Below are positions 3,375-27,262 of a stretch of 37,144 nt of DNA, in pieces (the first letter of the stretch is position 1; each line of letters starts with the position of its first letter). The stretch is from Eubacteriales bacterium. GTDB lineage: Bacteria > Bacillota > Clostridia > Oscillospirales > CAG-272. The notes below the pieces were generated by a model. That model made no database searches and was not told the DNA's origin. It saw only the letters and a list, made by a program, of their open reading frames with translations. The position numbers were made by a program, and so were the translations under genes. The DNA is taken from positions 1 through 37,144 of the forward strand of contig JAZQYE010000225.1 of the NCBI GenBank assembly GCA_045633385.1. Reading direction: 5' to 3'.

Positions 3375-4061
3375 ATGACCAAGCTATGTATTTTCGATTT
3401 GGACGGTACGGTGCTGGATACCGTTCCGTCCATTGCCCACTATGCCAACGGGGCGTTGGAAAAAAACGGCGTTGCACCGATTGCGGAGCACGAATACAAA
3501 TACCTTGCCGGCAAGGGAATTGCCAATTTGGTAGAGGGGATGCTGCGCTTTCGCGGCTGTTACAGCCAAGAGCTGTATGCGCGCGTGTATCACGATTACG
3601 ATACGGCGTACAATGCGGACGTTGCCTATAAAACCACCATTTTTGAGGGGCTCAAGCCCGTGCTCGATCAACTCCGCGCGCGCGGCATTCTGTTGACCAT
3701 CGTTTCCAACAAGCCCGACTTTGCCGCGCAGACCGTGGTCAAAGCGCTGTATGGGGAGGGGTATTTTGCATACGTTACGGGGCAAAAGCCGGGTGGCGTG
3801 CTCAAGCCCGATCCCTCGGTGGTGCTCTCCGTGATGGAGCAATTTGAGGCACGCCCCGCGGATTGCGTTTACGTGGGCGACACCTCCACCGATATGCTCA
3901 CGGGCAAAAACGCAAATCTCTATACCGTGGGTGTGCTTTGGGGCTTTCGCGGCCGCGAGGAGCTGGAGGAAAACGGCGCCGATGCCATTGCCGCCACTCC
4001 CGCGGAGCTTTTGGAGCTGATTTTGAAACGATTTTGTGCTTTGGGAGAAAACAATGTCTGA
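3375..4061 (+). CDS. HAD-superfamily hydrolase, phosphoglycolate-phosphatase-like (HAD-IA)
   Basis: 228-aa ORF with motif I FDLDGTVLDT, motif II VSNK and motif IV VGDTSTD. Substrate cannot be assigned from sequence alone. Confidence 0.85.
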   Translation: MTKLCIFDLDGTVLDTVPSIAHYANGALEKNGVAPIAEHEYKYLAGKGIANLVEGMLRFRGCYSQELYARVYHDYDTAYNADVAYKTTIFEGLKPVLDQLRARGILLTIVSNKPDFAAQTVVKALYGEGYFAYVTGQKPGGVLKPDPSVVLSVMEQFEARPADCVYVGDTSTDMLTGKNANLYTVGVLWGFRGREELEENGADAIAATPAELLELILKRFCALGENNV

Positions 4062-9392: not shown

Positions 9393-10856
9393 TTAACATA
9401 CCTGTGTTCCGTCGGAGCAGAAGATTTTGATTGCAGGGGTTTTATAGTTCCAACTGCTTGCAAATTTTATAGTTCTCCATTGTGCAACAGTTCCTTGAAA
9501 TTCGATGGTATTAAGATTACTACAATTGCGAAATGCATAGGATTCTAAGCTTTCTATGCTGGCGGGAAGTGTGATGTTCGTAATGTTACTACAGTCTTCA
9601 AATGCATGATCACCGATGCTTGTTCCACCTGTAATTACAACGGTTTTCAGCGATGTAGGAACACAATTTGCATTATCATAATATGTTGATGCACCAAAAA
9701 TAAAGCCCAAATGGTGATATGGTGTTCCGTTTTTGGTTTGTCCCCCAACAAACGGAATCGTGATACTTGTAAGGCTACTGCAATTCTCAAATGCTCCCCC
9801 TCTAATGTTGGTTACACTATCTGGAATCTTGAGGCTTGTCAACCCGCTGCAATTCTTAAATGCCCCCACATCAATACTCGTTAAAGTATCTGAAAATGTA
9901 ATACTTTCCATCGCGGTACAATCGGCGAATGCAGATTCTTCGATAACTGTTACGCTATTGGGAAGCGTTATACTTGTAAGCGCTACGCAACCTTCAAAAG
10001 TGGACTTTTTGATATTTTGCACGCTATTTGACATTGTGACGTTTTGTAAAGCGGTGCAACCGGTGAACGCTGATTCGCCGATTGATGTTACACTATCGGG
10101 AAGCGTTATATTCGTAAGAGCGGTGCAACCAGAGAATGCGAATGCTCCAATGTTTTTCATATTATTCGATATTGTTACACTCGTTAAAGCGGTACACTCC
10201 GCAAAAGTATAGTCACCGATGCCCGTCAATCTGTCGGGTGTTGTAATGCTTGTCAAGGATGTGCAACCATAAAATGCAGCATCGTTGATGGATTTTAAAT
10301 TGTTTGGCAGAGTGATGCTTTCTAAAGAAGTGCAATTTGCGAATGCGTAAATTCCGATGGTGGTTGCGCTAGGCATTGTTATGTTTGACAATGCGGTGCA
10401 ATTGTAGAATGCCATCGAGCCAATATTCATTACCCCTTTACCAAGAGAGATATGAGTTAAAGCATTACATTCATAAAACGCATTATCGCCAATGGCGGTA
10501 ACGCTATCCGGAATTGTAATTTTTGCAAGGCTACTACATCCTCGGAAAGCATCTTCTTTGATGATGGCGATGTTTTTGGACAACTTAATACTAGTCAAAT
10601 TGTGACATTCAAAAAACGCGCCCACTCCTATAGCAGTAACTTTGTAGCCGTCAATTTTTTTTGGGATTTTGATATCCGTAGCTGTGCAAGTACCAATATC
10701 TATGATGGTACAGGTTTTTTCATCATCGTTAATTTTGTAAGCAAGTCCCTTAGAAGAACTGTTACAGGCAGTAAGTGCAAGGATTCCCACAAAGATGATT
10801 AGGGAGGTAAGCAATGCAATTTTAATGTTTTTTCTCACTTTACTTTCCACTTTCAC
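9393..10856 (-). CDS. BspA-type leucine-rich-repeat (LRR_5) surface lipoprotein, low-GC
   Basis: 487-aa ORF. Lipobox ILALTAC; repeated units (T/S)I(T/K)(I/L)P(D/N)SVT-IG--AF--C--L. C-terminal cap FQGTVAQW...IFCSDG. The start is ambiguous between GTG 10856 and GTG 10838 (MRKNIKIALL...). GC is about 40 % against about 52 % in the neighbours. Confidence 0.88.
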   Translation of the reverse strand: MKVESKVRKNIKIALLTSLIIFVGILALTACNSSSKGLAYKINDDEKTCTIIDIGTCTATDIKIPKKIDGYKVTAIGVGAFFECHNLTSIKLSKNIAIIKEDAFRGCSSLAKITIPDSVTAIGDNAFYECNALTHISLGKGVMNIGSMAFYNCTALSNITMPSATTIGIYAFANCTSLESITLPNNLKSINDAAFYGCTSLTSITTPDRLTGIGDYTFAECTALTSVTISNNMKNIGAFAFSGCTALTNITLPDSVTSIGESAFTGCTALQNVTMSNSVQNIKKSTFEGCVALTSITLPNSVTVIEESAFADCTAMESITFSDTLTSIDVGAFKNCSGLTSLKIPDSVTNIRGGAFENCSSLTSITIPFVGGQTKNGTPYHHLGFIFGASTYYDNANCVPTSLKTVVITGGTSIGDHAFEDCSNITNITLPASIESLESYAFRNCSNLNTIEFQGTVAQWRTIKFASSWNYKTPAIKIFCSDGTQVC

Positions 10857-10881
10857 GTTTCAGCCCGTCGGCATTTTTTCT

Positions 10882-10910
10882 ATTATACCATATCTGTAAA
10901 ATTTTGTCAA
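10882..10910 (-). promoter_or_regulatory. Consensus sigma-A promoter of the low-GC LRR gene
   Basis: On the minus strand: TTGACA (10905-10910), 17-nt spacer, TATAAT (10882-10887), with TGG immediately upstream of the -10. Confidence 0.7.
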
Positions 10911-10917
10911 TACATTA

Positions 10918-10953
10918 ATATAATAAAGCGCCCACCGAAAGGGTGGGCGCTTT
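10918..10953 (-). terminator. Intrinsic terminator of the two-component operon
   Basis: On the minus strand, AAAGCGCCCACC-CTTTC-GGTGGGCGCTTT hairpin (10925-10953) followed by ATTATATT, 40 nt after the stop at 10993. Confidence 0.8.
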
Positions 10954-10992
10954 AGCGTTTATAAAAGCTCCGCGTTTTGATATTGCACTTTG

Positions 10993-11769
10993 TTACTTTT
11001 TAAATTGCAGCATGGCGCAGGTTTCTTCTGCCCAGCTGTATTGCGTCATGTATTCGCCGTGAAAATCGGGCTTGCCCGATTCGAGATAGCTGACGTAGTC
11101 GCACTTGATCAAGCCCGTATCAATGCGGTAGCACGGTGTTTCATGGCACAAAACGCTCTCGGCTCCTACCTTTTTTAAGGTGTTTTTCAAATCCATTACA
11201 AGCTGACGTAAATACGCCGCGTTTTTGTTATCGTCCGTGTTGTACGGGAACAAGACGGCACAGATCTGCTTTGCGGTCATGCCTGCACCGTTTCGGTCAA
11301 CCAAAAAAGCAAACAGCTCCTTGGTCTTTAAACGCTTGAATGCGAGCTGCTTGTTTTTGACGTACACCTCAAAATTGCCAAAGCACTTTACCGTAAGCAT
11401 TTTTTCTTTTTTGATAACGCCCTTGATGTTGTTGATCTCCTCTTGCACGTCCTCGGCGGAGATGGGCTTCATCAAATAGCCCGAAGCGTGAAGCTTAAAG
11501 GCGGGAATGGCGTACTCCTCGTATCCCGTGCAGAATACGATCTTGCAATCGGGGCGCATATCAATGATCTTTTTTGCAAGTGCAAGTCCGCCCATGCCGC
11601 GCATATGGATATCCAAAAAGGCAACGTCAAGCGAATGCTTTTGCACAAATTCGAGCGCTTCCTCACAGTTGGAAAATTTTGCGATCTCCGTAATATCGGG
11701 GGAAGCCTGAATTGCCGCTACCAGGGCACCGAGCATCAACGCTTCGTCATCAACTGCTATTGCAATCAT
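10993..11769 (-). CDS. Two-component response regulator: REC domain plus SARP/BTAD-like winged-helix output
   Basis: REC motifs VDDE, phospho-acceptor FLDIHM, CTGY and YLMKP. The C-terminal FGNFEVYVKNKQLAFKRLKTKELFAFLV resembles the wHTH of SARP-type activators, not LytTR, OmpR or NarL outputs. Confidence 0.85.
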   Translation of the reverse strand: MIAIAVDDEALMLGALVAAIQASPDITEIAKFSNCEEALEFVQKHSLDVAFLDIHMRGMGGLALAKKIIDMRPDCKIVFCTGYEEYAIPAFKLHASGYLMKPISAEDVQEEINNIKGVIKKEKMLTVKCFGNFEVYVKNKQLAFKRLKTKELFAFLVDRNGAGMTAKQICAVLFPYNTDDNKNAAYLRQLVMDLKNTLKKVGAESVLCHETPCYRIDTGLIKCDYVSYLESGKPDFHGEYMTQYSWAEETCAMLQFKK

Positions 11770-13625
11770 TTTTGTACCTCCTTTGGAATGGTGATCAGAA
11801 CCTTGGTTCCAACACCTATCGTGCTTTCAATATTGAGCGTGCCGTTTACCATTACCTTGAGTCGCTCGCGAATATTTCGCAGTCCCACGTGCTTTCGGTC
11901 GTTATCCTGCAAGGTGTTGGTGTCAAAGCCTGCACCGTCATCGGTTACCGAAATACAATAAGCCTTGTCGGTCTCGTACGAGAGTACGCGGATCGTTCCG
12001 CCGTGGGGCAGCTTCATCAGTCCGTGCTTGATCGCGTTTTCGACGATGGGCTGAACGGTAAGGGCGGGGATGTGAAAATCGTTGGAGCTCATTTCAAAGG
12101 TAAAGGTCATATCGGGAAAGCGCACCCTTTCGATGCTGACGTAGTGGTGCACGTGCTCCATTTCCCGTGACATTAAAATGGGCTTGTGGTTATCCAGCTC
12201 GCCAAAATTTCCGCGCAGATATTTTGCAAAGCTGTGTACCAGCTCGGCGGCTTTTGGCGGATCCAGCTTGCAGAGCTGCTCGATGCTGCCCAGCGTGTTG
12301 TAAACAAAGTGGGGGCGGATCTGGCTGATCATGGTGGAGATCCTGGTTTCGCTCAGCTGTGCGTCAAGTGCTATTTTTTCATTCTCCAATTCACGTGCTC
12401 TTGCCGCCGCGTTGATGCTGTGTGGAATGAGGCGGAGCACCATGATCATAGCAAGGGCAAACAAAATGACAAACACGTATTGCGAAATAATGCCGCCCTT
12501 CCAAGCACCGAGCACGTTTCCGATCACGTCAACGGCAAAGGCGATCAGGGGGAGAAGTGCGCCGATATAGATCCAACGCTCTTTTTTTCTCATGCATACA
12601 AACTCTTTTATCAGGCAGAATGCCAGCAGGACGTTTGCAAGGAGCTGTACGGCGATCCAATAGATCAGCATATCGTAAAAGAGAAGGTTGGCAACGATAG
12701 GCAATACGAGGAACACGGCGGTCGAAGCCCCCAAAATGAGGACAGTAACAAGTCCGATCCTTTTGGTCGAGTGAAGGAAAGTGGCAATGACCAGAGAAAG
12801 GAAGAACATATAAAACATCATGGAGATGCCTGAGATCGTGGTGTTGAAAACAATGGACTCACTCCAAAAGGAAACGCCGCTTGCGCTGTATGCAAAGTAA
12901 GCGCCTGCAAACAAAACGGTAAAGCCGAGTAACCAGATCAGGCGGTCGTTTTTGATATGGATCAAGCTCGAAAACAGGGCAATTCCCAAAAATACGATGG
13001 CAACCAGTATCAGCAAAATTCCCGTTTCCCGTTGCTGTTCTCCGCCTGTGATAGCACCCTTTTCAAAATCGATGTTATCCCAAATTGCCACACCCGAAAG
13101 CATTTCGTCAATGGCTGTCTCGTTTCCAAAGTGGTGCGGGTTGTGGATCCGGATTTCAACGAGGTCGGTCTTTTGACTGACAAAGGAATAACCGCCCCAG
13201 CCCTCGCCGCAGGCAGATCTGCCGAACAAGGGGTTCTCCATATCCATCACAAAGGGCTCGCTTCCAACCTCGTAAATCGTCAGACTGATGTGATCCGTGT
13301 AAAACGCAAGCGGTGCTTCCTCACGGTAAACGCCTGCGTAATTCCCAAGGGGATCCAGCATGTGAAAGTTGCCGCGGAGTGTTACGTCGCCCTTGGTAGC
13401 GGGAATATGCTCGCCGTTTGTAACGCTGTGCCACTCGCCGTCACCGATTCGGTATTCACCCTCAAAATAGATGTCCGCCACGAAAGGGGGGAGGGCTTGT
13501 ACGCTGGTGCTCTCGCCAAACCACAAAAGCGCTACGGCAAGCAACAACAGCAACAACACGCCTATTATCGGCAGGTGCGATTTTTGAAATATACGTGTAT
13601 GAAATCCGTTTTTTTGCTTCGGCAT
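11766..13625 (-). CDS. Sensor histidine kinase, LytS/YesM type (His_kinase PF06580 + HATPase_c) with ectodomain and 7 TM segments
   Basis: ORF track 11766..13640. ATG 13625 is preferred (GGAGG 8 nt upstream). An ectodomain of about 170 aa is followed by seven hydrophobic segments, then IRPHFVYNTLGSI (H-box of PF06580) and the ATPase blocks NAIKHG and DDGAGF. There is a 4-nt overlap with the regulator gene. Confidence 0.88.
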   Translation of the reverse strand: MPKQKNGFHTRIFQKSHLPIIGVLLLLLLAVALLWFGESTSVQALPPFVADIYFEGEYRIGDGEWHSVTNGEHIPATKGDVTLRGNFHMLDPLGNYAGVYREEAPLAFYTDHISLTIYEVGSEPFVMDMENPLFGRSACGEGWGGYSFVSQKTDLVEIRIHNPHHFGNETAIDEMLSGVAIWDNIDFEKGAITGGEQQRETGILLILVAIVFLGIALFSSLIHIKNDRLIWLLGFTVLFAGAYFAYSASGVSFWSESIVFNTTISGISMMFYMFFLSLVIATFLHSTKRIGLVTVLILGASTAVFLVLPIVANLLFYDMLIYWIAVQLLANVLLAFCLIKEFVCMRKKERWIYIGALLPLIAFAVDVIGNVLGAWKGGIISQYVFVILFALAMIMVLRLIPHSINAAARARELENEKIALDAQLSETRISTMISQIRPHFVYNTLGSIEQLCKLDPPKAAELVHSFAKYLRGNFGELDNHKPILMSREMEHVHHYVSIERVRFPDMTFTFEMSSNDFHIPALTVQPIVENAIKHGLMKLPHGGTIRVLSYETDKAYCISVTDDGAGFDTNTLQDNDRKHVGLRNIRERLKVMVNGTLNIESTIGVGTKVLITIPKEVQK

Positions 13626-13673
13626 TTCCGTTTCCTCCAAAGGGCGATAGATTATTTTGTATCAGCACTTATT

Positions 13674-14005: not shown

Positions 14006-15580
14006 ATGAAATCCATAAAAAGCAAAATTCTTTTTATTGTTATTTTTGCTTTGGTTACGGTATCGGCTTCAGTTGGTTTTGTCAGTTATTATTTAACGCA
14101 TGAGATCATGCACAATAACGCAGATGAAATGTTAGATTTAGTCAGCCATGAAAAGGCAGCTGACGTTAACTCCATTCTGCAAAGTATGGAGGATACGGTG
14201 CATTTTGTCAATATTTATGCAACGGCACTGTTGTCGGACGTGGAACAACTTCAGGATATAGACTTTTTAACGCGTTATACGCAAGACCTCGAAAGCGTAT
14301 TTACAGAGGCAGCGAAAGAGACCGAGGGTGTCGTTGGTTATTATTTTCGACTTGCCCCCGAGCTGAGCACGCCTCGCTCCGGCTTCTTCTATGACAAGAG
14401 CGCGATTGGAGGTGCCTTTAAGGTTCAGCAGGTCACCGACCTTTCGCAGTACGCCCCCGACGACCGCGAGCACGTGGGCTGGGATTATGAGCCCCTGCAG
14501 GCAGGCAAGGCGATTTGGATGGAACCGTACGATAACCTCAATAACGGCATTCGTATGATCTCCTACGTCATTCCCGTGTACTGTGACGGCACGTTTATCG
14601 GCGTTTTGGGAATGGATCTTGCGTTCGATTTTCTGGCAGCCACTATCGACGATATTTCGGTTTACAAAAGCGGCTTTGCTTATTTGAGTGATGACGAGGG
14701 AGAACTTGTTTACAGCTCACGGGAGATTGGCGACGATGTGGAGAACGGTCGTTCTACTTATACCGAGGCTTCTGCTATGCTGGATAACGGAATGAGGCTG
14801 ACCGTTCGTGTAGGATATCAGGACATCCAGGGAGAGAGTCGCATTCTGTTGCAGAGTATTATTATTATCGACAGCATTCTTGCCGTCGTTTTCATTCTCG
14901 CCACGATCTATTGTGCCGACCATATCATCAAGCCGCTCAAAAAGCTGACCAAAATGGCAAAGGCGTTGGTGGATGGCGAAAAGATCACCGAATTGGCAAG
15001 CGACGCCAAGGACGAGGTGGGAATCCTTTCCCGCATCTTTATGGAGACTTCCGAAAAGCTGCAGGAAAACATGAGCTACATTACGGCGTTGGCATACCGC
15101 GATACCTTAACGGGGGTTAAGAATACCACCGCTTATAACGAAGCGATTGCCGACGTAGAAAAGCAGATGAATTGCGGTCGCCCGCAGTTTGGTGTGCTTG
15201 TGGCAGACGTAAACGATTTGAAGCTGGTCAACGATACCTACGGTCACGATGCGGGAAATCAAATGATCCAGCACGCCTCCCGTTTGCTGGGCGGTACCTT
15301 CCGTTACAGTCCGTTGTTCCGTATCGGCGGTGATGAATTTGCCGTTATTTTGACGGGCTTGGATTTTGAAAACTACCGTCAGCGACTCAAGCAGCTTGAC
15401 GAGATGTGCGAGCAGGACGTGATCCCGATCGACGGAACCGACATTTGTTTGTCGCTGGCAAGAGGCGTTGCAATTTATGATCCCGAAATTGACCGCACCT
15501 TTAACGACGTATTCAATCATGCCGATCAAGCCATGTATATGCATAAGCAGAGCATGAAGCAGTCGCAGAATGATATTTAA
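14006..15580 (+). CDS. Membrane sensor diguanylate cyclase (Cache-like ectodomain, HAMP, GGDEF)
   Basis: RBS GGGGAGGG. TM1 at aa 9-30, a periplasmic region of about 250 aa with Cache-like blocks (WMEPY, MISYVIPVY.DGTFIGVLGMD), TM2, HAMP (IIKPLKKLTKMA), RDTLTGVKN and an intact RIGGDEF (GGDEF at 15326-15340). No RxxD I-site occupies the canonical position. Confidence 0.9.
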   Translation: MKSIKSKILFIVIFALVTVSASVGFVSYYLTHEIMHNNADEMLDLVSHEKAADVNSILQSMEDTVHFVNIYATALLSDVEQLQDIDFLTRYTQDLESVFTEAAKETEGVVGYYFRLAPELSTPRSGFFYDKSAIGGAFKVQQVTDLSQYAPDDREHVGWDYEPLQAGKAIWMEPYDNLNNGIRMISYVIPVYCDGTFIGVLGMDLAFDFLAATIDDISVYKSGFAYLSDDEGELVYSSREIGDDVENGRSTYTEASAMLDNGMRLTVRVGYQDIQGESRILLQSIIIIDSILAVVFILATIYCADHIIKPLKKLTKMAKALVDGEKITELASDAKDEVGILSRIFMETSEKLQENMSYITALAYRDTLTGVKNTTAYNEAIADVEKQMNCGRPQFGVLVADVNDLKLVNDTYGHDAGNQMIQHASRLLGGTFRYSPLFRIGGDEFAVILTGLDFENYRQRLKQLDEMCEQDVIPIDGTDICLSLARGVAIYDPEIDRTFNDVFNHADQAMYMHKQSMKQSQNDI

Positions 15581-15627: not shown

Positions 15628-15656
15628 TTGACTTTTTCCATGGAATGTATTACAAT
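15628..15656 (+). promoter_or_regulatory. Sigma-A promoter driving the riboswitch-controlled operon
   Basis: TTGACT (15628-15633), 17-nt spacer, TACAAT (15651-15656). Confidence 0.65.
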
Positions 15657-15667
15657 ATAGGAAATTG

Positions 15668-15755
15668 ATTATTTTGGCAAATCTGTCGAAAGGCAGAGAC
15701 GCAAAGCTTGGTGGCTAAGCAAAGGATATTTGTATGCTCGACCGGTTGCAAACTG
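15668..15755 (+). promoter_or_regulatory. Cyclic-di-GMP-I (GEMM-I, Rfam RF01051-type) riboswitch aptamer
   Basis: GGCAAATCTGTCGAAAGGCAGAGACGCAAAGC (15676-15707) matches the invariant GEMM-I core: GGCAAA, a hairpin capped by a GAAA tetraloop, then GACGCAAAGC. The second hairpin carries a tetraloop-receptor-like GCTAAG...TATGC. Confidence 0.85.
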
Positions 15756-15784
15756 TTTTTGTTTTGCAACCGGTCTTTTATTTT
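15740..15784 (+). terminator. Intrinsic terminator forming the riboswitch expression platform
   Basis: 13-bp perfect stem GACCGGTTGCAAA (15740-15752) / TTTGCAACCGGTC (15763-15775), 10-nt loop, then TTTTATTTT. The 5' arm overlaps the 3' strand of the aptamer. Confidence 0.85.
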
Positions 15785-15802
15785 GAAAGGATGTGACCCA
15801 GA

Positions 15803-16501
15803 TTGAACCGAGTGTATCGGGAAGAGAAAAAGTTTTTGATCAACGTTGAAGATTTCCGCAGGCACGCACATCACCTGGAGCAGGTCTTAACACAGGACGA
15901 ACACAACGGCGCATTCGGTTACCGCGTTCGGTCGCTGTATTTTGATACGATATACGATAACGATTATTTTGAAAAGCTGGACGGCGTGGAGCTGCGGCGA
16001 AAGATCCGTCTTCGTATTTACGATCCGAGCAACGACTTTGCACTGTTGGAAATGAAGCAAAAGCAGGGGCAATATCAGCTCAAGCGCTCGCTCCGAGTCA
16101 CACGCGCGGATGCCGAGGAGCTGATCATGGGCAATTACACGCCGCTTTTAAAATACCGCGAGGATTTTGCCGCCGAGTGCTACGCGTTGATGCAGTCGCA
16201 GATCTATCGCCCCAAAACGGTGGTGGAATACAACCGCAAGGCGTTTGTGGCAAAGGAGAACAAGATCCGCATCACCTTTGACAATCAGATCGTATCTACC
16301 GAGAGCGATTGGAATATTTTTGCCAAGGATCTGAACATGAACGCCGTGCTGGATCCCTTCCACGTGGTGTTGGAGGTCAAATTCAACGGCTTTTTGCTGG
16401 ATTATATCAAGGATCTTTTGGCAAGCACGCAAAAAAGCGAGCTTTCTGTCAGTAAGTATATGCTTGTACGCCAAGCATCATATAAATACAACGTATTATA
16501 A
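15803..16501 (+). CDS. VTC-domain protein (PF09359-like, polyphosphate-polymerase / CYTH-like tunnel fold)
   Basis: 232 aa with a TTG start (alternative GTG at 15812). YREEKKFLI, YRVRSLYFDT, ELRRKIRLRIYD and LEMKQKQG match the conserved basic-tunnel strands of VTC domains. No TM segment or signal peptide. Confidence 0.8.
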   Translation: MNRVYREEKKFLINVEDFRRHAHHLEQVLTQDEHNGAFGYRVRSLYFDTIYDNDYFEKLDGVELRRKIRLRIYDPSNDFALLEMKQKQGQYQLKRSLRVTRADAEELIMGNYTPLLKYREDFAAECYALMQSQIYRPKTVVEYNRKAFVAKENKIRITFDNQIVSTESDWNIFAKDLNMNAVLDPFHVVLEVKFNGFLLDYIKDLLASTQKSELSVSKYMLVRQASYKYNVL

Positions 16502-16519
16502 CAAGGAGTTTACAGTAGC

Positions 16520-17197
16520 ATGAATGACAAGATTTTAGAGCTGTTTGGGGGACAAAATAATTTGACCTGGCAGGTTATTTTGATGAATATCCTGTTTTCT
16601 GCCTTTTTGGGCGTAATCATTTACCTCTCTTATTACCTGACGCATCGCGGAACCATTTACAGCAAAAAGTTTAACGTTTCGCTGGTGGTGCTCACCGTTC
16701 TCACGGGTACGGTCATGACGGTCATCGGCAACAACCTGGCGCTCTCGCTCGGTATGGTCGGTGCGCTCTCTATCGTTCGTTTCCGTACGGCGATCAAGGA
16801 TGCGCGCGATACGATGTATATCTTTTGGGCGATCATCGTTGGTATCTGCTGCGGTGTCAGCGACTTTTTGGTATCCTCCATCGGCAGTGCCGTTGTTTTT
16901 CTCATTCTGTTTATCTTCCATTCGATCAAAAACGACAAGAGAATGCTGTTGATCATTCGTGCAAAGCGCGATCTCGGCGAGCCGATCCAAGCCGCAGTAT
17001 TCAATTTGTTTGACCGCAAGGCTGTTTTGCGCGTGCGCAACACCACACAGGATCGCGTGGAGATGATCTACGAGATCTCCTCCGAGCTGTTGCAACACGC
17101 CGAAAGAGGTAAGCACAGCGTATGCGATAAGATCTATGAGCTTGGCGAGATCGAATACGTCAACATCGTCATGCAAAACGACGAGATCTCCGGTTGA
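16520..17197 (+). CDS. DUF4956-family integral membrane protein
   Basis: 225 aa with 4-5 hydrophobic segments. GALSIVRFRTAIKDARDTMYIFWAIIVGICCG is the hallmark DUF4956 block. The soluble C-terminal tail is about 90 aa. Confidence 0.8.
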   Translation: MNDKILELFGGQNNLTWQVILMNILFSAFLGVIIYLSYYLTHRGTIYSKKFNVSLVVLTVLTGTVMTVIGNNLALSLGMVGALSIVRFRTAIKDARDTMYIFWAIIVGICCGVSDFLVSSIGSAVVFLILFIFHSIKNDKRMLLIIRAKRDLGEPIQAAVFNLFDRKAVLRVRNTTQDRVEMIYEISSELLQHAERGKHSVCDKIYELGEIEYVNIVMQNDEISG

Positions 17198-17201
17198 TTG
17201 A

Positions 17202-18689
17202 ATGAAATACCGTATTTTAGGAATTGTGATCGCGCTCTCCCTGTGTCTTTCCGTGTTTGGTGCATTTGCGTATGCACAGTATCAGCCAACGGGGAACGGG
17301 ACGCGATACCATCAGCATTTGGAGGCAGAGCAAAAGCCTGCCTGCGAGCATACCGACGGCAGCTTTTGTACGCACTTGCCCTTGATCGAGATCAATACCG
17401 AGGGTGGGGAAGAGGTGCCCGGTAAATTCTATATTGACGAAAACCAAAAGGAGCAACCGACCCTTTCCGCAAGCGGCGAAACCTACGTGATGGCAAGCGT
17501 CAATATTTTTGATAACGCCACGCAAAACAATCACCTGACCGATGCGGCAAGCGACACGGGAAGCGTGCGCATCAAGGTGCGCGGAAACTCCTCGCGCTAC
17601 CACGATAAGCTCGGATACACTCTGACCTTTGTGGATGAGGCAGGCGAAAACGAATCCCACGCCGTTATGGGCATGGACGCACACCACGAGTGGGCAATGC
17701 ACGGCCCTTTTCTGGATAAAACGCTCATTCGCAACTATATGTGGTACAACATTTCGGGCGAGCTGATGGACTATGCGCCCAACGTCCGCTTTTGCGAGGC
17801 GTTTCTCAACGGCGAATACATTGGCGTGTACGTGATGGTGGAGACCATTACGGCAGGGCAGGTGGCGGACTCGCGCCTGGATCTGTCGGTTCAAAAAAAG
17901 GATCAGACCTTTACGGGCTACTGCATTCGTATGGACCGCGGAAGCTCCGAGCTGAAGAATCTGGACACCTTTTTAAACTACACCCTGCGCAATCGGCAGA
18001 CCATTGATATCGTATATCCCGGAACCTCCAATCTCACGCCCGAGATCAAGCGTGCGATCGAGCAGGATTTTTCTCACTTTGAGCGCAACTTGTACTCCTT
18101 TGACTACGGCGACGAGACCTACGGCTACCCGAGCTTTATCGACGTTGATTCCTTTGTGGATTATTTTTTGATCAACGAGTTCACCTCAAACTACGATGCG
18201 GGCTGGCTCTCGACCTACGTTTACAAGGATATTGACGGCAAGCTTGACCTGTGCGTATGGGATTTTAACTCGGCGTGCGATAACTACAAGGACGGCGCAA
18301 TGGATCTGACCGATTTTCAAACGCATTATCAACTATGGTTCGTTATGCTGGTCAAATCTCCCGAATTTACCGAGCGGATCATCGAGCGGTACAAGGAGCT
18401 GCGCCGTACCTATTTCAGCGAGGAGTATCTCAACCGCTACATCGAACAGACCGTTGCGTATCTGGGAGATGCGGTCGAGCGCAATTTTGAAAAGTGGGGC
18501 TACACCTTTGAGGAGGGCAATGGACTGCTCGTTCCCGCAGAGCGCAACGTTCACTCCTACGAGGAGGCGTTGGAGCAGCTGCGCTCCTACATTGAGGTGC
18601 GCGGAGAATGGATGGATGCCAATATCGACAGCCTGCGCCAATACTCGAGCGAATCCAGAAACAAAAAACAAAACGAATCGAGGCGGTGA
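17202..18689 (+). CDS. CotH-family atypical kinase-fold protein (PF08757-like), secreted or membrane-anchored
   Basis: Starts 4 nt after the previous stop. N-terminal signal/anchor MKYRILGIVIALSLCLSVFGAFAYA. IKVRGNSSR, DKTLIRNYMWY, LNGEYIGVYVMVE and VWDFNSACDN match CotH family blocks. Confidence 0.85.
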   Translation: MKYRILGIVIALSLCLSVFGAFAYAQYQPTGNGTRYHQHLEAEQKPACEHTDGSFCTHLPLIEINTEGGEEVPGKFYIDENQKEQPTLSASGETYVMASVNIFDNATQNNHLTDAASDTGSVRIKVRGNSSRYHDKLGYTLTFVDEAGENESHAVMGMDAHHEWAMHGPFLDKTLIRNYMWYNISGELMDYAPNVRFCEAFLNGEYIGVYVMVETITAGQVADSRLDLSVQKKDQTFTGYCIRMDRGSSELKNLDTFLNYTLRNRQTIDIVYPGTSNLTPEIKRAIEQDFSHFERNLYSFDYGDETYGYPSFIDVDSFVDYFLINEFTSNYDAGWLSTYVYKDIDGKLDLCVWDFNSACDNYKDGAMDLTDFQTHYQLWFVMLVKSPEFTERIIERYKELRRTYFSEEYLNRYIEQTVAYLGDAVERNFEKWGYTFEEGNGLLVPAERNVHSYEEALEQLRSYIEVRGEWMDANIDSLRQYSSESRNKKQNESRR

Positions 18690-18697
18690 TCTGAGAC

Positions 18698-20866
18698 ATG
18701 AAAAAATATCTGATACTTGTCGCCGTACTGATCGCACTCGTTTTGCTCGGAGACGCGCTTTATTACCGCGTGGGACTGTATATTCCTTGCAGTACCAATG
18801 AGCCGGTCAGCGTGATCTCCAAGATCGAGGACGGGCAGATCACGCAAAAAAAGCCCGACGGCAGCTACGAGATCATTGAGATCAAGGGCGTGAATATGGG
18901 TTCGGGTGTTCCGGGCTACTGGTCCACCGAGTTCCATATTGACAAGGAGACCTATTTGCGTTGGTTTGGTATGATCCAGGATATGGGGGCAAACGTTATT
19001 CGCGTTTACACCATTTTGTCGGAGGATTTTTACAACGCCTTTTACGAGTACAACAACGGGCGTGAGGAGCCGCTGTATCTGATCCAAGGCGTTTGGGTCA
19101 ACGATTACGTGCTGAACTCGCACCACAACATTTACGACGATGCTTTTTGTGAAAACTTTTACACCCACTGCAAAACGGTGGTGGACGTGATTCACGGAGA
19201 AAAAAAGATCTATAAAAATCAATTGCACAGTGCCGGCTACGGCTCTTACCTCAACGACGTTTCGGATTGGGTGCTGGGCTATATCTGGGGCGTTGAATGG
19301 GAGGACCTGACGGTTGCCTATTCCAACGACTATTACAAGGAGCAATCCGAATACAACTCCTATGCGGGAAAGTATCTGTCTTCCTCCGAGGACGCAAACG
19401 CCTTTGAGGTCATGCTTACCATGGTGGGCGACCGCACGCTCGAGTACGAGATGAAGCGCTACCGTGAGCAACGCGTGTTTGCATTTTCCAACTGGGTGAC
19501 TACCGACCCCTTTGATTATCCCGAAGAGGTCGCACGGCAGTTTTCCAAGTGTAGCAAGGTGGATATCGAAAACATTCAATGCAGTAACGAGGTTTTGTCG
19601 GGTCAGTTTGCATCCTACCACGTTTACCCCTACTATCCCGACTATTTGAATCTGTTCAGCGACGAGGAGTGGGAAACGCTTGAGATCGGAGACCGCTCCC
19701 TGTACGCCACCGAGGACGGCAAGACCAACACCTATCTTGCCTACCTGCAATGCCTGACCAATTACCACACCGTTCCCGTGCTGATTTCTGAGTTTGGCGT
19801 TTCGACGGGTCGCGGCATTGCCCAAATCGACCCCAACACGGGCAGAAACCAGGGTAATATGTCCGAGCAGGAGCAGGGCGAGGCTTTGGTCTCCTGTTAT
19901 CAGGATATTATGAAGAGCGGCTGTATCGGCGGTTGTGCCTTTATCTGGCAGGACGAGTGGTTCAAGCGTACGTGGAATACCATGTACTCGGTCGATCTCG
20001 AACGCACGCCGTATTGGTCGGATTATCAAACAAACGAGCAATACTTCGGTCTGCTTTCCTTTGACCCCGGCGAGGAGAAAAGCGTTTGCTACGTGGACGG
20101 TGATATTTCGGAATGGACCGAGCGTGACGTTGTTGCGCAAAACGCCGACGGCAGCAGTATTTCGATGAAGTACGATGAAAGATTCGTATATCTGATGGTG
20201 AAAAAGAGCGGATTTTCGATCGATAACGACAAGCTCTATATCCCCATTGACACCACGCAAAAGTCGGGAAGCAACTATGCCGCAGGCGAGAACGTTAAAT
20301 TTGATCGCGCCGCCGACTTTTTGCTGGTGCTGGACGGAAAAGAGAACTCGCGCTTGCTGGTGCAGGAGCGTTATGAAGCACTGCGCGCCAACTATTCCAA
20401 AGAGGTGTACGGCTTTAACACCTATTACGAGGGCAACGTTCCCGCCGCAGATTCGCCGCAATTTCGCGAGATCTATCTTGTTTTGCAGCTGGAGTCGGAG
20501 GAGGGAACCGAAAACAGCAAATTCCATACGGGTCTTTTGACCTACGGAAATGCAAATCCCGTTTCGGACGAGTTTAATTCGCTTGCCGATTTTTGCGCAG
20601 GTGACGGCTACGTTGAGATCAAGCTCCCGTGGCAGCTGCTCAACTTTATGGATCCTTCCCGTATGATGATCCATGACGATTACTACGAGCACTACGGTTT
20701 GGAGGCAATTGCAATCGACCGTATTTATCTTGGTCTTGGCGACGGTACGGAATCGCGTATCGAAATGAAAGACACCAAATTGAAGGCGTGGGATAACAAG
20801 GTAACCTCCCACGAGCGCCTCAAGGCGTCTTATTACATCTTACAAGCCTTTTGGAAAGAGGACTAA
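18698..20866 (+). CDS. Membrane-anchored extracytoplasmic (beta/alpha)8 glycoside-hydrolase-like protein (clan GH-A-like motifs)
   Basis: 722 aa. N-terminal TM anchor LILVAVLIALVLLG. IKGVNMG, MGANVIRVYTI, CSNEV...SYHVYPYYP and LISEFGVS follow the order of GH-A strand-end motifs (NE acid/base, H-x-Y, E nucleophile). The family was not identified. Confidence 0.7.
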   Translation: MKKYLILVAVLIALVLLGDALYYRVGLYIPCSTNEPVSVISKIEDGQITQKKPDGSYEIIEIKGVNMGSGVPGYWSTEFHIDKETYLRWFGMIQDMGANVIRVYTILSEDFYNAFYEYNNGREEPLYLIQGVWVNDYVLNSHHNIYDDAFCENFYTHCKTVVDVIHGEKKIYKNQLHSAGYGSYLNDVSDWVLGYIWGVEWEDLTVAYSNDYYKEQSEYNSYAGKYLSSSEDANAFEVMLTMVGDRTLEYEMKRYREQRVFAFSNWVTTDPFDYPEEVARQFSKCSKVDIENIQCSNEVLSGQFASYHVYPYYPDYLNLFSDEEWETLEIGDRSLYATEDGKTNTYLAYLQCLTNYHTVPVLISEFGVSTGRGIAQIDPNTGRNQGNMSEQEQGEALVSCYQDIMKSGCIGGCAFIWQDEWFKRTWNTMYSVDLERTPYWSDYQTNEQYFGLLSFDPGEEKSVCYVDGDISEWTERDVVAQNADGSSISMKYDERFVYLMVKKSGFSIDNDKLYIPIDTTQKSGSNYAAGENVKFDRAADFLLVLDGKENSRLLVQERYEALRANYSKEVYGFNTYYEGNVPAADSPQFREIYLVLQLESEEGTENSKFHTGLLTYGNANPVSDEFNSLADFCAGDGYVEIKLPWQLLNFMDPSRMMIHDDYYEHYGLEAIAIDRIYLGLGDGTESRIEMKDTKLKAWDNKVTSHERLKASYYILQAFWKED

Positions 20867-20891
20867 AACGTGATTTTGGAAAGGAGCTATT

Positions 20892-22157
20892 ATGATTGAA
20901 ACACTGCTATGGATCTATATTGCGGTCTGTTTGTCGCTGATTTTTTTTCAATGCCTGTTTATTGCAATCATCGCGCTCCGTTCCTATTTTGACCGTCGCG
21001 TGATAGAGCGCAGGTATCGGGAGATCGTCGGTCAGCTTGAGCGGATCTCCCTCAACCAGCCCGTTGCCGACGAGCATCAAAGCTTTTTGAAAAAAGAGCT
21101 CTTTCTTACCCCTTCGCTCTATTGCTACGAAAAGGCGTTGCGTCGGGTGTTTGACGAGATTGAAAACGGTACGCTTGCTTTGCGCGACCCGAACGAGATC
21201 ACAAACGTGATCATCGATATTCGTCACCGTGCCAAAAAAGGGGACGAGAGATCCAGAGGACACTCTAAGATCCGCATGAAGCTGCGCCCCAAAAAGTCGC
21301 TGATCCAACCGCTTGCCAAGGAGCTTGCGGAGCGCTATTTGGGTGAATATGTTCGCCAAACCGCCCCTGCCATCGTTTCTTTGACCGCATCCTATCGCAA
21401 AAAGGACAATATCGTTCACCTGTTTTACATATTCATGCTCAAAAAGTACGGCTATTTACGCCATTGCTACACGTCTGAGCTGGTTGCAAATTTGCGCGAT
21501 TTGTTAGACGACGGCGATTCGGTTTGCGCCGAGGGAATCCTGTTGGCAGTGTATCAGATCGGAGATCCCCACATTACGCTGGACGTTTTACGGCAGGTCG
21601 ATCAAATAGACCGATTCCTGCACCCCAAAATCGTCAGTGACGGATTGCTTTCGTTTGCGGGCGATGCGCTGTCTTGGCAAAAGCTGATGCTGGAGCACTT
21701 GCACGAGTTTTCGGAAACGATGCAGGTCAATCTGCTCAACTACCTGCGCTTTGCGTCGGGTGACCACTGCGAGCGCGTTTTGCAGATGCTTCAAAACGAA
21801 GAGACTTATGACGAGGTGCGTTTTTCCTGCATTCGTTATTTCGGCAAATATCCCTATGAGCCCGCTTACGATCTGCTTGCCGCGTTTGCCGCAGGCATTC
21901 CCGAACAGCGCATCGAATACGCTATCGTTGCGCTTGCCGTTCTCCGACGCTACCCGCGTCAGCGAACGATCGATATTTTGCGTGCACAAATCGGCAGCTT
22001 CAATTGGTTCGTTCGTTACAACGCGACCGAAAGTCTGGAGACCCTTGGCATCGAATATCAGGATCTGGTCGATATTTTTGACGGTAAGGATCGCTTTGCA
22101 AGAGATATGCTGCAATATCAATTCGACCAAAGATATATTCTTGACGGGGAGGTTTGA
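20892..22157 (+). CDS. Membrane-anchored hypothetical protein with HEAT/PBS-lyase-like repeats (tentative)
   Basis: RBS AAAGGAG. N-terminal TM LLWIYIAVCLSLIFFQCLFIAIIAL. Helical-repeat character, e.g. NWFVRYNATESLETLG resembles the VRxxAAxALG HEAT-like unit. Confidence 0.7.
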   Translation: MIETLLWIYIAVCLSLIFFQCLFIAIIALRSYFDRRVIERRYREIVGQLERISLNQPVADEHQSFLKKELFLTPSLYCYEKALRRVFDEIENGTLALRDPNEITNVIIDIRHRAKKGDERSRGHSKIRMKLRPKKSLIQPLAKELAERYLGEYVRQTAPAIVSLTASYRKKDNIVHLFYIFMLKKYGYLRHCYTSELVANLRDLLDDGDSVCAEGILLAVYQIGDPHITLDVLRQVDQIDRFLHPKIVSDGLLSFAGDALSWQKLMLEHLHEFSETMQVNLLNYLRFASGDHCERVLQMLQNEETYDEVRFSCIRYFGKYPYEPAYDLLAAFAAGIPEQRIEYAIVALAVLRRYPRQRTIDILRAQIGSFNWFVRYNATESLETLGIEYQDLVDIFDGKDRFARDMLQYQFDQRYILDGEV

Positions 22158-22159
22158 GA

Positions 22160-23575
22160 GTGAAATACGATTTTATCAACGCCGTGGCGGAATTTTTAAA
22201 GGGTATTACGGTTGGCTACGGTACGTATCTTGTTCTTTATTCCACCTTTCTGTTCGTTGCGGTCATCGTAGGTGCGCTGGTTCTGTATTACCGTAATAAG
22301 CGCATGCGGTACCAGAACGTAGTGGAGAATGAGTATCAGATCCCCATTACCATCGTCGTTCCCGCTTATAACGAGGAGGTCACGGTCGTAGAGACGGTAA
22401 AGTCTCTTTTGACGCTTGAGTATCGCTCCTACGAGATCATCGTTGTGGACGATGGCTCCAAGGATAATACCTCGGGCGTTTTGCGCGAGGCATTCGATAT
22501 GCACCCCGTGCGCCGACCGATCCGCAAGCAGATACCCTGTAAGGACGTTGACACGATTTACGAGTGCTTTACCGAAAAGGTTCCGCTCGTGCTGGTCAGA
22601 AAGATCAACGGCGGAAAGGCAGACGCCTTGAATATGGGAATCAACGCCTCCAGATTTCCGTACTTTATTTGTATGGACGCCGACTCCGTTTTGCAGGCAG
22701 ATTCCTTAATTCGCATTACCCGTCCCGTAATCGAAAACGACGATATCGTTGCCGTTGGCGGCGTGGTACGTCCCTGTAACGACGTCGAATTGGAGGGCGG
22801 ACGCGTCAAGCACTATCAGCTCCCCAAAAACCTGGTGGCTTGTATGCAGGTCGTGGAGTACGACCGCTCGTTTTTGGCTACCCGTATCCTCTTTGACCAA
22901 TTCAACGGCTCTCTCATTATTTCGGGCGCGTTTGGATTGTTCAAAAAAGAAGCCGTCATTGCCGTGGGTGGCTACGACAGCAAAACGATGGGTGAGGATA
23001 TGGAGCTTGTAGTCGATCTTCACAAATACTGTACGGCAAACAAAAAGCCCTACGCGATCAAGTATGCAACCGATGCGGTTTGCTGGACGCAAGCTCCCGA
23101 ACGCTTAAAGGACCTTTGTAAGCAACGCAAGCGTTGGCATCTCGGACTTTTTCAAACGCTGATGAAGCATCGCTCCATGGCAACCGATTTCAAAAGCGGC
23201 CCCGTCAGCTTTATTTCCTATGCGTATTTCTTTATTTACGAGTTTTTGTCACCCTTTATCGAGTTTTTCGGCTTGATCGTTACGTTCTTATCTCTTGTTG
23301 CCAAGCTGATCAACTTTAAATTCTTTTTGATGTTTACCGCAATTTACGCATTGTTTGGCGCGGCACTGACGCTGACCTCGTTTTTTGCGCGAACACAGAC
23401 CTCCGAGATCAAGCTGACCGTGCGCGACGTTGCAAAAGCGGCTTTGATGTGTTTGCTGGAGATCGTTTTTATGCACAACGTTATGACGTACGTGCGCGCC
23501 ACCGCCTTTATCGGCTACCGTAAAAAGAAGCTGCAATGGGGACGGATCGAGCGAAAGAAAATCAACTTAAAGTAA
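22160..23575 (+). CDS. Processive family-2 glycosyltransferase (IcaA/PgaC/BcsA-like polysaccharide synthase)
   Basis: ORF track 22154..23575 (TTG). GTG 22160 is preferred (GGGGAGG 7 nt upstream). VVDDGSKDNT, CMDADS, GEDMEL and QRKRW (23123-23137) form the D,D,D,QxxRW signature. N-terminal TM plus about four C-terminal TM segments; no PilZ domain. Confidence 0.88.
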   Translation: MKYDFINAVAEFLKGITVGYGTYLVLYSTFLFVAVIVGALVLYYRNKRMRYQNVVENEYQIPITIVVPAYNEEVTVVETVKSLLTLEYRSYEIIVVDDGSKDNTSGVLREAFDMHPVRRPIRKQIPCKDVDTIYECFTEKVPLVLVRKINGGKADALNMGINASRFPYFICMDADSVLQADSLIRITRPVIENDDIVAVGGVVRPCNDVELEGGRVKHYQLPKNLVACMQVVEYDRSFLATRILFDQFNGSLIISGAFGLFKKEAVIAVGGYDSKTMGEDMELVVDLHKYCTANKKPYAIKYATDAVCWTQAPERLKDLCKQRKRWHLGLFQTLMKHRSMATDFKSGPVSFISYAYFFIYEFLSPFIEFFGLIVTFLSLVAKLINFKFFLMFTAIYALFGAALTLTSFFARTQTSEIKLTVRDVAKAALMCLLEIVFMHNVMTYVRATAFIGYRKKKLQWGRIERKKINLK

Positions 23576-23587
23576 GGAGGAGAGACC

Positions 23588-26500
23588 ATGCAAAACAAAC
23601 GGCTTTTATGGCTTATGCCGATGATGATCGTCCTGCTGATCTCCATGCTTACGGTTACGGCGGGTGCCGCGGTTTCCTTTTCCGAGGAGAACCGAGGCGA
23701 CAGTCAAAGCGTGTTTATTGCGGGCAACCCCGACCTGTATCCCATCGAATACTTCAACCCCAATACCAAACGCTACGAGGGCGTAATGCCGATTTTGTTC
23801 GAGCGTATTTCCGAGGAGTGCGGACTTGATTTTACCTACATCTACGCATCTGCCGAAAACAAGCAGCAGTATCTGGCGCAAAACGGGCAGGTAGATATCG
23901 TATCCGCGTACGTCAACGATCGCATCGATACGCAGTACGTTCCGCAGGAGAGTGCGTTGCTTCACTTTACCTATAACGGGCGCACCCAAACGGCAGTCAT
24001 TGGCTTTACGTCGGTTTGTGACCAAACGGTAAAAGAGAAGATCAGTACGTATCTGGAGGCGTTGAGCGAGGAGGAGCTGACGGCAATTACCGTTTCCTAC
24101 GTTATGACGCACCAAAGAGAGAGCGCCAAAAACGCATGGATCTTGCCAACCGTTATCGCGGTGATATTGGTCGCGCTTGTCGTTTTGGGCTTGCTGTTCT
24201 ACCGCAATCAAAAGAGGACGGTGGAGCAAAAAAAAATCAACCCCAAAAGCGGACTGTACAACAAGAGCTATCTGGACGTTATTTTGTATTCCTTGATCCA
24301 CGATTTCGTCCGCAAGCGCTATTATGCGGTTTACGTCTCCGCAAATTATGAAAACCTGCTCAAATACTACACCAAGCCCCAATTGGTCGCGCTGTCGGAT
24401 TATATATCGCGCACCTTGCAGGCTGAATTGCAGGATCGCGAGTTTGGCATTCACGTAGGTGAAGACGTTACCTTTTTGCTGTTGATACAAGCCCCCAATC
24501 AGGGGCAGGCAGAGCAAAGGGTTGACGCGCTGATTCAAAGGCTGAACCTTGAAAACGAGATCTTGAGCGACGATTATCGCGTAACGATCTCGGCAGGCTG
24601 TTACGGACTTTCGCAGGCACGCGAGAGCGGCGAACGCATTCTCGACGTAACGAGCGAGGCATATCTTTACGCCGAGGAAAACGCGCTTCGGTACTTCTTT
24701 ATCGACCCTGTATTCCTGAAGCGGGTGGATCGTAAGGCGCTTTTGCAAAAGGAGACCGTTCAAGCGATCAAAAAGGATCAGATCCTGTTCTATCTGCAAT
24801 ATATTGTGGATATTCAAAGAAACGTCATCATCGGTGCAGAGTCGCTCTCCCGTTGGGAGCACCCGCGTGAGGGACTGCTGTTCCCGGGGGCTTACATACA
24901 GCTGATGCAGCACGCAAACAACATTCATTTGTTGGATTTTTACATGCTTGAAAAAAGCTGTCAACAGCTTGCACGCTGGAACACGGACGAAGCGAACGGC
25001 TTGAAGATCTCCTGCAACTTTGACCGACAAACCGTTGCACGGGAAGATTTTTACGACCGTGTCATGGAGATCACCGAAAAATACGGCGTCGATCGCAGTC
25101 GCCTCGTTTTGGAGATCACCGAGGATACCTTTGTTTACAACAAAGAAAACGTGATGCAAAACACGGGCAGACTGCGTAAGGAAGGCTTTAACATAGCCCT
25201 TGACGATTTTGGCAGGGGAAGCTCTTATTTCCAGAATCTGATCGAGTATCACGTCTCCCTTCTCAAGCTGGATCGCATCTTCGTTGCCATGATGAAGACC
25301 GCGCCCGGCGAAACGCTCATCCGCGGAATCGTAACGGCGGCGCACGATCTTGGACTCCACGTACTGCAAGAGGGCGTAGAGACCTACGCAGAGCTGCAAA
25401 CGTGCAAGGCGTTTGGCATTGATATGGTGCAGGGCTTTGTGTTCTCCCGCGTCATTCCCGGCATCGAGGGCGATCGCGTCAGACGCCGTTTGGCTGCTCG
25501 TCTGTTGGAGGAGGGCGCACCCCAAAACAGCTTGCAGACCTATGCCGACGTCAACCCCGACGCCGAGGAGGATAACGTTTACGAGGACGATGACGAGGAG
25601 GGAAGCGCTTACGGTACGCGCTACCGTTGGAGCTTTTTGGCTCGTTTGCACCGCGCTCCCGAGGAGATCGCCGGTTACTATTCGGAGCTGAAGAACGCAT
25701 TTTTGAAATACAAAAAGGTTCGTTCCCGTATCAGCTGGAGCTACGATACCGTCAGCTATCGCCACGCACCTGCGGCAAAATTCGTCATGCGTCAAAAATC
25801 CTTGTTGCTCTATCTTGCTCTGCCGCCCGCAGAATTTGAGGAAAGCAAGTATTTCTTTGTAGATGCATCCGAAAAGAAGAAATACGAGCAGGTTCCGCTT
25901 CGCTTAAAGATTCGCGGCAGCCGCGGCTTTAAGCACGCCTTGGAGCTGATCGAGGAGCTTGCCAAGCGGCTGGAATGGAAGGAACAGACCGATTTTACCG
26001 CACAGGATCACACCTTGCCGTTCAAAACGGTAGAGGAGCTGATCGAGGTAAAGCTGATCAAAATAAACGGCAAGGCACTTGCCGTAGAGGAGCTTCCCGC
26101 ACCGCAAAAGGTGCAAAGCAACATTTCTTATCAAGCACCGAATTTTTCAATTGTAGAGCCTGTTAAAGAGGAAACATCAATGGAGGAAAATACCATGGAA
26201 AACAATTCGACCATTACGCAAAATATTGCGGACTTTATTTACGGTACCTATTACCGTTGGAGCTTTACCGCACGCCTGCACCAAGCGCCCGAAAACGTTG
26301 CCGAGTATTACAACGATATCAAAAATGCCTTTTTGCGCTACAAAAAGGTCAAGTCGCGCATCAGCTGGAGCTGTGATACCATTACGTTTGGCAAGGAGCA
26401 GCTTGCAAAATTCGTGCTGACGCAAAAAACGCTGTACGTATATCTGGCACTCTCTCCCAAGGACTTGGAGGGAACCAAGTACTTCTTTACCGACGAGTCG

Positions 26501-27214: not shown

Positions 27215-27262
27215 TCTGCCAAAGCTTTCCACCTTCATCAAGTAAAAGGAGCGTAAGCCAAC

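Follow-up and report, generated by a model that had tools for sequence, protein, structure and literature searches.

A single c-di-GMP-I riboswitch probably acts as the transcriptional ON switch of a 12.7-kb operon of eight tightly spaced genes in the window, that is, in the whole stretch of 37,144 nucleotides that was analysed; we put the probability of this reading at roughly 85%. The aptamer sits in the 5' leader of the operon, on the same strand as the first gene, which encodes a VTC-domain protein, and 3' of a predicted promoter (Table 1). As an object of RNA biology this riboswitch adds nothing new, since its class has been characterised well, and so has this type of ON switch. Its main value is that of a functional pointer for an uncharacterised group of genes, the VTC-DUF4956-CotH operon: among the best 80 of the 524 relatives found, this operon lies behind a predicted c-di-GMP-I ON switch in 72, often directly after a sensor GGDEF gene. 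The resulting prediction is that, in many Clostridia of the gut and rumen that are not in culture, the operon may be a surface or matrix system induced by c-di-GMP.

An earlier note on this DNA, written from the sequence alone, had proposed a c-di-GMP-I (GEMM-I) riboswitch and had named as its check a match to RF01051 above the gathering cutoff. A scan with cmscan and Rfam 15 returned such a match at 15666-15753 of the forward strand, with a score of 72.6 bits, the gathering cutoff being 35, and an E-value of 1.6e-12, which is far beyond chance. The alignment runs the full length of the family model (positions 1-87 of 87), and a family-specific covariance model, R1, described below, scores the aptamer of the window at 87.8 bits. 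The coordinates given in that note were all right, the Rfam match merely beginning 2 nt earlier, at 15666. When the 37-kb window was scanned with all 4227 families, none of the others, c-di-GMP-II (RF01786) included, gave a match above its gathering threshold.

The resemblance to the Vc2 aptamer of Vibrio cholerae that had been pointed out extends over GGCAAATCTGTCGAAAGGCAGAGACGCAAAGC (15676-15707), where 25 of 32 positions are identical to the Vc2 string as it was quoted there. The seven differences all fall in the P2 stem and keep its pairing, and the same core likeness is seen in the Rfam consensus alignment. The GAAA-capped hairpin CUGUC/GGCAG is present at 15683-15696, and GCUAAG (15714-15719) with UAUGC (15733-15737) forms a tetraloop receptor of the 11-nt type, as had been suggested; the closing pair is its sole difference from the canonical 11-nt receptor, and the helices are backed by covariation. 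The label "type 1", for RNAs with a GNRA-capped P2 and a receptor in P3, reportedly goes back to the work of Weinberg and colleagues in 2007. The contact between L2 and P3 that joins the tetraloop to its receptor has been described for GEMM RNAs (bioRxiv 10.1101/2024.05.28.596103).

Two pairs, G15677-C15702 and C15678-G15701, are formed at the junction. By alignment, the positions that contact the ligand are G20 (15676), A47 (15703) and C92 (15749), of which A47 is the base that we take to stack between the two bases of the ligand. Roles in ligand recognition are documented for G20 and C92 (PMC6140456), and the presence of all three bases points to c-di-GMP as the ligand. The P1 helix is weak, with three A-U pairs possible between three A of the terminator 5' arm and U15673-15675, and the bound aptamer must therefore owe most of its stability to P3 and to tertiary contacts.

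Table 1. Positions of the riboswitch elements, the neighbouring signals and the genes in the window.
Feature	Position	Strand	Details
dCache-HAMP-GGDEF sensor cyclase gene	14006-15580	+	Pfam; upstream of aptamer
Sigma-A-type promoter TTGACT-17-TACAAT	15628-15656	+	Predicted, 10/12 matches
P2 hairpin UCUGUC-GAAA-GGCAGA	15682-15697	+	GNRA tetraloop 15688-15691; Rfam alignment
P3	15705-15747	+	RF01051 alignment
Tetraloop-receptor internal loop in P3 and apical hairpin between its strands	15714-15737	+	Read directly; Rfam consensus CUAAg...uAuG
Intrinsic terminator hairpin	15740-15775	+	13 perfect pairs, 15740-15752 (GACCGGTTGCAAA) with 15763-15775 (TTTGCAACCGGTC), then TTTTATTTT (15776-15784); loop 15753-15762 (10 nt)
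U-tract UUUUAUUUU	15776-15784	+	Read directly
Shine-Dalgarno-like GAAAGGA	15785-15791	+	Beyond terminator
TTG start codon of VTC gene	15803-15805	+	Beyond terminator
Operon, 8 tightly spaced genes, 12.7 kb	15803-28525	+	
Gene 1, VTC domain	15803-16501	+	
Gene 2, DUF4956	16520-17197	+	
Gene 3, CotH	17202-18689	+	
Gene 4, 722 aa	18698-20866	+	No family match
Gene 5, HEAT repeats	20892-22157	+	
Gene 6, GT2 synthase, PgaC/IcaA-like	22154-23575	+	Best NCBIfam match, below family cut-off
Gene 7, EAL protein, 1208 aa	23588-27214	+	
Gene 8, CE4 deacetylase, PgaB/IcaB-like	27263-28525	+	Best match, below family cut-off

The aptamer is closely interlaced with the terminator that follows it, a hairpin with a calculated energy, when folded alone, of -20.6 kcal/mol. 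Three elements make up the 5' arm of this terminator: the final 7 paired bases of the P3 3' strand, then G91-C92, then the P1 3' strand. The motifs ACCGG (15741-15745) and GCAAA (15748-15752) had been described as the nucleotides that close the aptamer and that also belong to this arm; they do lie within the arm, but they do not make up one closing helix, ACCGG being part of the P3 3' strand and GCAAA corresponding to G91-C92 plus the 3-bp P1. The central claim, that the aptamer 3' strand doubles as the terminator 5' arm, stands; 71 of 73 orthologous leaders show the same overlap, and their arms co-vary. Given that the terminator 5' arm lies wholly inside the aptamer 3' strand, the two folds are mutually exclusive. 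In the terminator, C15749, the presumed pairing partner of the ligand, is bound to G15766, and with the aptamer intact at most 5 terminator pairs are possible, which are too few for a terminator. The hairpin had not been listed by a simple terminator scan, whose loop limit of 8 nt is shorter than the 10-nt loop found here, and folding and direct pairing were used instead.

The energies indicate which of the two folds is the default. The minimum-free-energy fold of 15660-15790 (-38.6 kcal/mol) includes the terminator, and this 131-nt leader has a folding z of -2.96 against dinucleotide shuffles. By nearest-neighbour energy, the aptamer secondary structure reaches -18.3 kcal/mol and the combination of P2 and the terminator -31.6 kcal/mol. 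With the terminator fold 13-20 kcal/mol more stable than the aptamer secondary structure, the default state would be termination, which nothing but an aptamer stabilised by its ligand could prevent, and the switch would work only if the ligand binds fast enough during transcription. Once the predicted terminator has formed, the P3 5' strand is released and can form a small hairpin, GCUUGG-UGG-CUAAGC (15706-15720), which uses the receptor sequence; judged by eye, on one relative, this hairpin does not look conserved and may be incidental.

The signals on either side of these structures were also located. The inferred start of transcription, at about 15663, is 2-3 nt before the aptamer, and in most orthologous loci TTGACA-17-TAnAAT occurs with a comparable spacing to the aptamer, often with the extended -10 motif TGTG. 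The start assigned to the VTC gene gives the N-terminus MNRVYREE, which agrees with the MNQVYREE of homologues. A translational mechanism was considered and ruled out, the ribosome-binding site being outside both folds; with the Shine-Dalgarno-like sequence and the TTG codon both located there, control would be transcriptional.

The same layout bears on the direction of the switch. OFF switches are frequent among riboswitches of this class, an example being Cd1 of Clostridioides difficile (PMC9262584), but we regard a design in which the bound ligand favours termination or prevents translation as hardly credible in this leader. It would need a separate anti-terminator competing with the aptamer, for which the leader leaves no space, as the entire 5' arm of the terminator is the aptamer 3' strand, C92 included, in the window and in 71 of the 73 leaders; the position of the ribosome-binding site, outside both structures, speaks against a block of translation.

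The ON switch that we favour would work as follows. Transcription would begin near 15663, at a promoter that belongs to the operon itself, although some transcripts may also read through from the GGDEF gene; the first part to be made would be the aptamer (15666-15753). The binding of c-di-GMP at the three-helix junction (15676, 15703, 15749) would lock P3 and the short P1, leaving 15740-15752 unavailable; the 13-bp terminator would be blocked and RNA polymerase would enter the 12.7-kb operon. If no ligand is bound, the 3' arm (15763-15775) would displace the P3 3' strand and pair with G91-C92, the more stable terminator would form, and transcription would stop in the U-tract. The aptamer itself would be the anti-terminator, and the decision would be a kinetic one, with a ligand-binding window of about 20-30 nt between the completion of the aptamer at about 15753 and that of the terminator at 15775. 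The sequences show that the RNA belongs to the family, how its parts are laid out, that the two folds exclude each other and that both are conserved and co-vary; we infer the direction of regulation, the identity of the ligand (from G20, A47 and C92), the kinetic nature of the decision and the function of the operon as a surface polysaccharide system induced by c-di-GMP.

The closest parallel in design is the pilM riboswitch of Geobacter metallireducens, a GEMM-Ib RNA that has been characterised as a transcriptional ON switch. There the aptamer and the terminator exclude each other, the cytosine that forms a Watson-Crick pair with the ligand is sequestered in the terminator, and the ligand has about 25 nt of transcription in which to bind (PMC9262584). 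The two leaders share the exclusive folds, the presence of the ligand-pairing C in the terminator, the absence of a separate anti-terminator and a short binding window (about 25 nt in pilM and about 20-30 nt here), and the ON-switch logic proposed for the window is supported by this analogy. They differ at the equivalent of position 20, where pilM, a sensor of 3'3'-cGAMP, has an A and the window a G; the organism is another one, and the genes controlled are those of pili rather than a VTC/CotH/GT2 operon. With Vc2 the window shares the three-helix junction, the GGCAAA...GACGCAAAGC core, the GAAA tetraloop of P2, the receptor in P3 and, by alignment, G20, A47 and C92. It departs from Vc2 in a P2 stem altered by compensatory changes, in a receptor (GCUAAG/UAUGC) that is nearer to the canonical 11-nt receptor than that of Vc2, in a P1 of only about 3 A-U pairs and in an expression platform that is an intrinsic terminator of the Gram-positive style.

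Two further members of the class come from Firmicutes. Bc2 of Bacillus thuringiensis, upstream of cap, is a c-di-GMP-I genetic ON switch (PMC4933901). It resembles the window in being a Firmicute c-di-GMP-I aptamer that holds back a surface or adhesion gene as long as c-di-GMP is low, and it differs in its target, a collagen adhesion protein there and an 8-gene operon of polysaccharide type here. Cd1 of C. difficile, upstream of flgB, is a c-di-GMP-I OFF switch (PMC9262584). It has in common with the window the aptamer class, the control of transcription termination and a clostridial lineage; in Cd1, however, there is a separate anti-terminator and the ligand favours termination, while here the anti-terminator would be the aptamer itself.

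The conservation of this arrangement was evaluated in orthologous leaders. Relatives of the VTC protein were sought with one genome per species; 524 were found and the best 80 were kept (L001-L080), nearly all of them metagenome-assembled genomes of gut or rumen Clostridia. A regular expression for the aptamer core recognised 69 of these best 80 loci, and the covariance model R1, built from 20 of their leaders, raised the number to 72, with the aptamer, there and in the window, about 125 nt upstream of the VTC gene. Together with that of the window, these make 73 leaders with 69 distinct sequences. In the distinct sequences, 93.3% of cells are paired, compared with 14-42% when the partners are slid, and compensatory changes on both sides are seen in 15 of the 20 aptamer base pairs; P2 has them at all 6 of its pairs, with 99.3% of cells paired. 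As the alignment was fitted to the model, these covariation counts lean slightly toward structure. A47, G91 and C92 are invariant in all 73 leaders. Extra hairpins of 30-40 nt are inserted at the tip of P3 in L035 (2846-2963) and L072 (2815-2941), which still score 72.9 bits with R1.

The terminator is conserved along with the aptamer. When the longest contiguous stem with C92 in it is taken from each leader, it extends over 4-10 nt of the P3 3' strand and has a U-rich tail behind it in 71 of 73. The terminator arms make up 47 distinct pairs, compensatory changes are seen at offsets -6 to -2 and also at +2 to +4, and the median stem is 13 bp when a leader is paired with its own downstream region, 7 bp when that region is swapped between leaders with different arms and 6 bp when it is shuffled. 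Some relatives have a long hairpin whose overlap with the aptamer is limited to the bottom 6 pairs, beside the U-tract. It is well known that the pairs next to the U-tract are those that intrinsic termination needs. The ON design appears, from these alignments, to be conserved across 72 species-level genomes of the best 80 of 524.

The other 8 of the best 80 loci (L005, L012, L018, L019, L021, L031, L046 and L052) had no Rfam match in the approximately 250 nt upstream of the VTC gene; the scan with all Rfam families found neither a class II riboswitch nor another leader RNA there. The 3' end of the terminator (GCAGCCGGTTTTTAC) is all that remains in L018, L019 and L021, a degenerate P3-like segment and a hairpin remain in L012, and in L031 and L046 the VTC gene directly follows the GGDEF gene. 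These eight loci look like independent losses of the switch.

Such losses, some of them with fragments left behind, could also be taken as a sign that the aptamer is a decaying, non-regulatory relic and that the hairpin does no more than terminate transcripts of the GGDEF gene constitutively. This gene stops 85 nt upstream, and no other convincing terminator is seen between it and the hairpin. The relic explanation nevertheless seems extremely improbable: the aptamer has a full-length score, ligand-contact bases are invariant, its helices co-vary in 69 distinct sequences, the terminator arms co-vary with the aptamer 3' strand, and the stretch from the GGDEF stop codon to the aptamer holds a conserved promoter. 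Taken together, the full score, the covariation and the promoter imply selection on a linked aptamer-terminator pair. A role as a conditional terminator for transcripts reading through from the GGDEF gene is compatible with the ON-switch explanation.

The identity of the ligand deserves a separate discussion, given that position 20 (alignment column 11) varies among the leaders: it is G in 29 of 73, the window included, and A in 44. Even the nearest relatives differ, with A in L001 (the closest), L003 and L004 and G in L002. An A at this position is the signature of GEMM-Ib RNAs, which sense cGAMP or are bispecific, and the G20A change makes Vc2 bind both c-di-GMP and 3'3'-cGAMP (PMC6140456). 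By this signature, an A at the equivalent of Vc2 G20, the window lies outside GEMM-Ib, with G at 15676.

The neighbouring cyclase shows a variation of its own. The GGDEF protein of the window has GHDAGN, and its Asn418 (15257-15259) aligns with the Asp of solved diguanylate cyclases; this position is Asp, specifying guanine, in canonical cyclases and Ser/Thr in the cGAMP-making Hypr enzymes (PMC6456294). The same Asn is found in L001 and in L006-L009, and all five have A20 aptamers. Of the 66 loci, among the best 80 of 524, that have enough upstream sequence, 43 have a GGDEF ORF on the same strand whose end lies shortly before the aptamer.

The Asn of the adjacent cyclase and the A20 of 44 leaders raise some doubt about which cyclic dinucleotide this neighbourhood uses. 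An aptamer that senses another one, either 3'3'-cGAMP or that together with c-di-GMP, by the same anti-termination would account for the GEMM-Ib signature in the majority of the leaders, that of L001 among them, and for a cyclase with neither the canonical nor the Hypr residue. For the window itself we consider this very unlikely, since its combination of G20, C92 and A47 is the one by which Vc2 discriminates against cGAMP (PMC6140456), the Hypr signature that has been described is a different one from Asn (PMC6456294), and the EAL domain encoded in the operon, with all its catalytic motifs, fits the turnover of c-di-GMP. The variation at the Asn and at position 20 does not appear to alter the assignment of c-di-GMP to the window, based on G20, A47 and C92, with a small chance of more than one dinucleotide. 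For the neighbourhood in a wider sense, an outside chance exists that it uses a cyclic dinucleotide other than, or besides, c-di-GMP, which would amount to the ligand re-wiring of one riboswitch-operon pair. If true, this would be a case among uncultured gut Clostridia, and the G20 copy of the window would represent either the c-di-GMP-specific state or a recent reversion.

An accessory group made up of the polyphosphate-polymerase (VTC), DUF4956 and CotH genes has been described directly next to pel polysaccharide loci of Gram-positive bacteria (PMC7112168). Among the best 80 of 524 loci, DUF4956 follows VTC in 77 and CotH was found in 69, the shortfall being due mostly to contig ends. In seven of them (L017, L025, L038, L050, L056, L069 and L072) about 1.7 kb of extra sequence, presumably one gene, stands between VTC and DUF4956 (approximately 3700-5450).

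The core of the operon is also found elsewhere. The published gene list of the NELoc-2 locus of Clostridium perfringens (PMC2879425) gives a VTC protein of 230 aa, a protein of 222 aa, CotH (497), a hypothetical protein (685), a HEAT protein (377) and a "chitin synthase" of 466 aa; compared by this list alone, the gene order is that of the window and the sizes are similar. In a plasmid collection, tblastn gave three matches, and the C. perfringens NELoc-2 copy was not among them. The best plasmid match, from Planococcus maritimus (L081 5389-12824), has the same six-gene core, VTC-DUF4956-CotH-~700 aa-HEAT-GT2, and this plasmid cassette had no Rfam match. The six-gene cassette looks like a mobile, conserved module.

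Considering the riboswitch, the GT2 synthase and the deacetylase, the last two with domain matches below the curated family cut-offs, as well as these parallels, it is reasonable, if unproven, to regard the operon as a c-di-GMP-induced surface polysaccharide system with a link to the matrix. A literature search that included DUF4956, the VTC domain and NELoc-2 found no paper linking a c-di-GMP riboswitch to VTC/DUF4956/CotH genes, and none of the genes of this operon is among the listed class I riboswitch targets of C. difficile.

The EAL protein adds a possible element of feedback. Its EAL domain keeps the ESL, N, EITE, DDFG, K, EGVE and QG motifs; with these catalytic motifs retained, the protein is probably an active phosphodiesterase. 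If so, an operon induced by c-di-GMP would lower the level of its own inducer, which suggests a self-limiting loop. The same protein also has a proline-rich, extensin-like C-terminal region.

The surroundings of the operon and its cyclase are made up of genes on the opposite strand. Downstream (31911-36188, reverse strand) there is an ORF of 1425 aa without a Pfam match, and upstream (9393-13640, reverse strand) there are genes for a sensor kinase (His_kinase/HATPase), a response regulator and a BspA-type leucine-rich-repeat protein.
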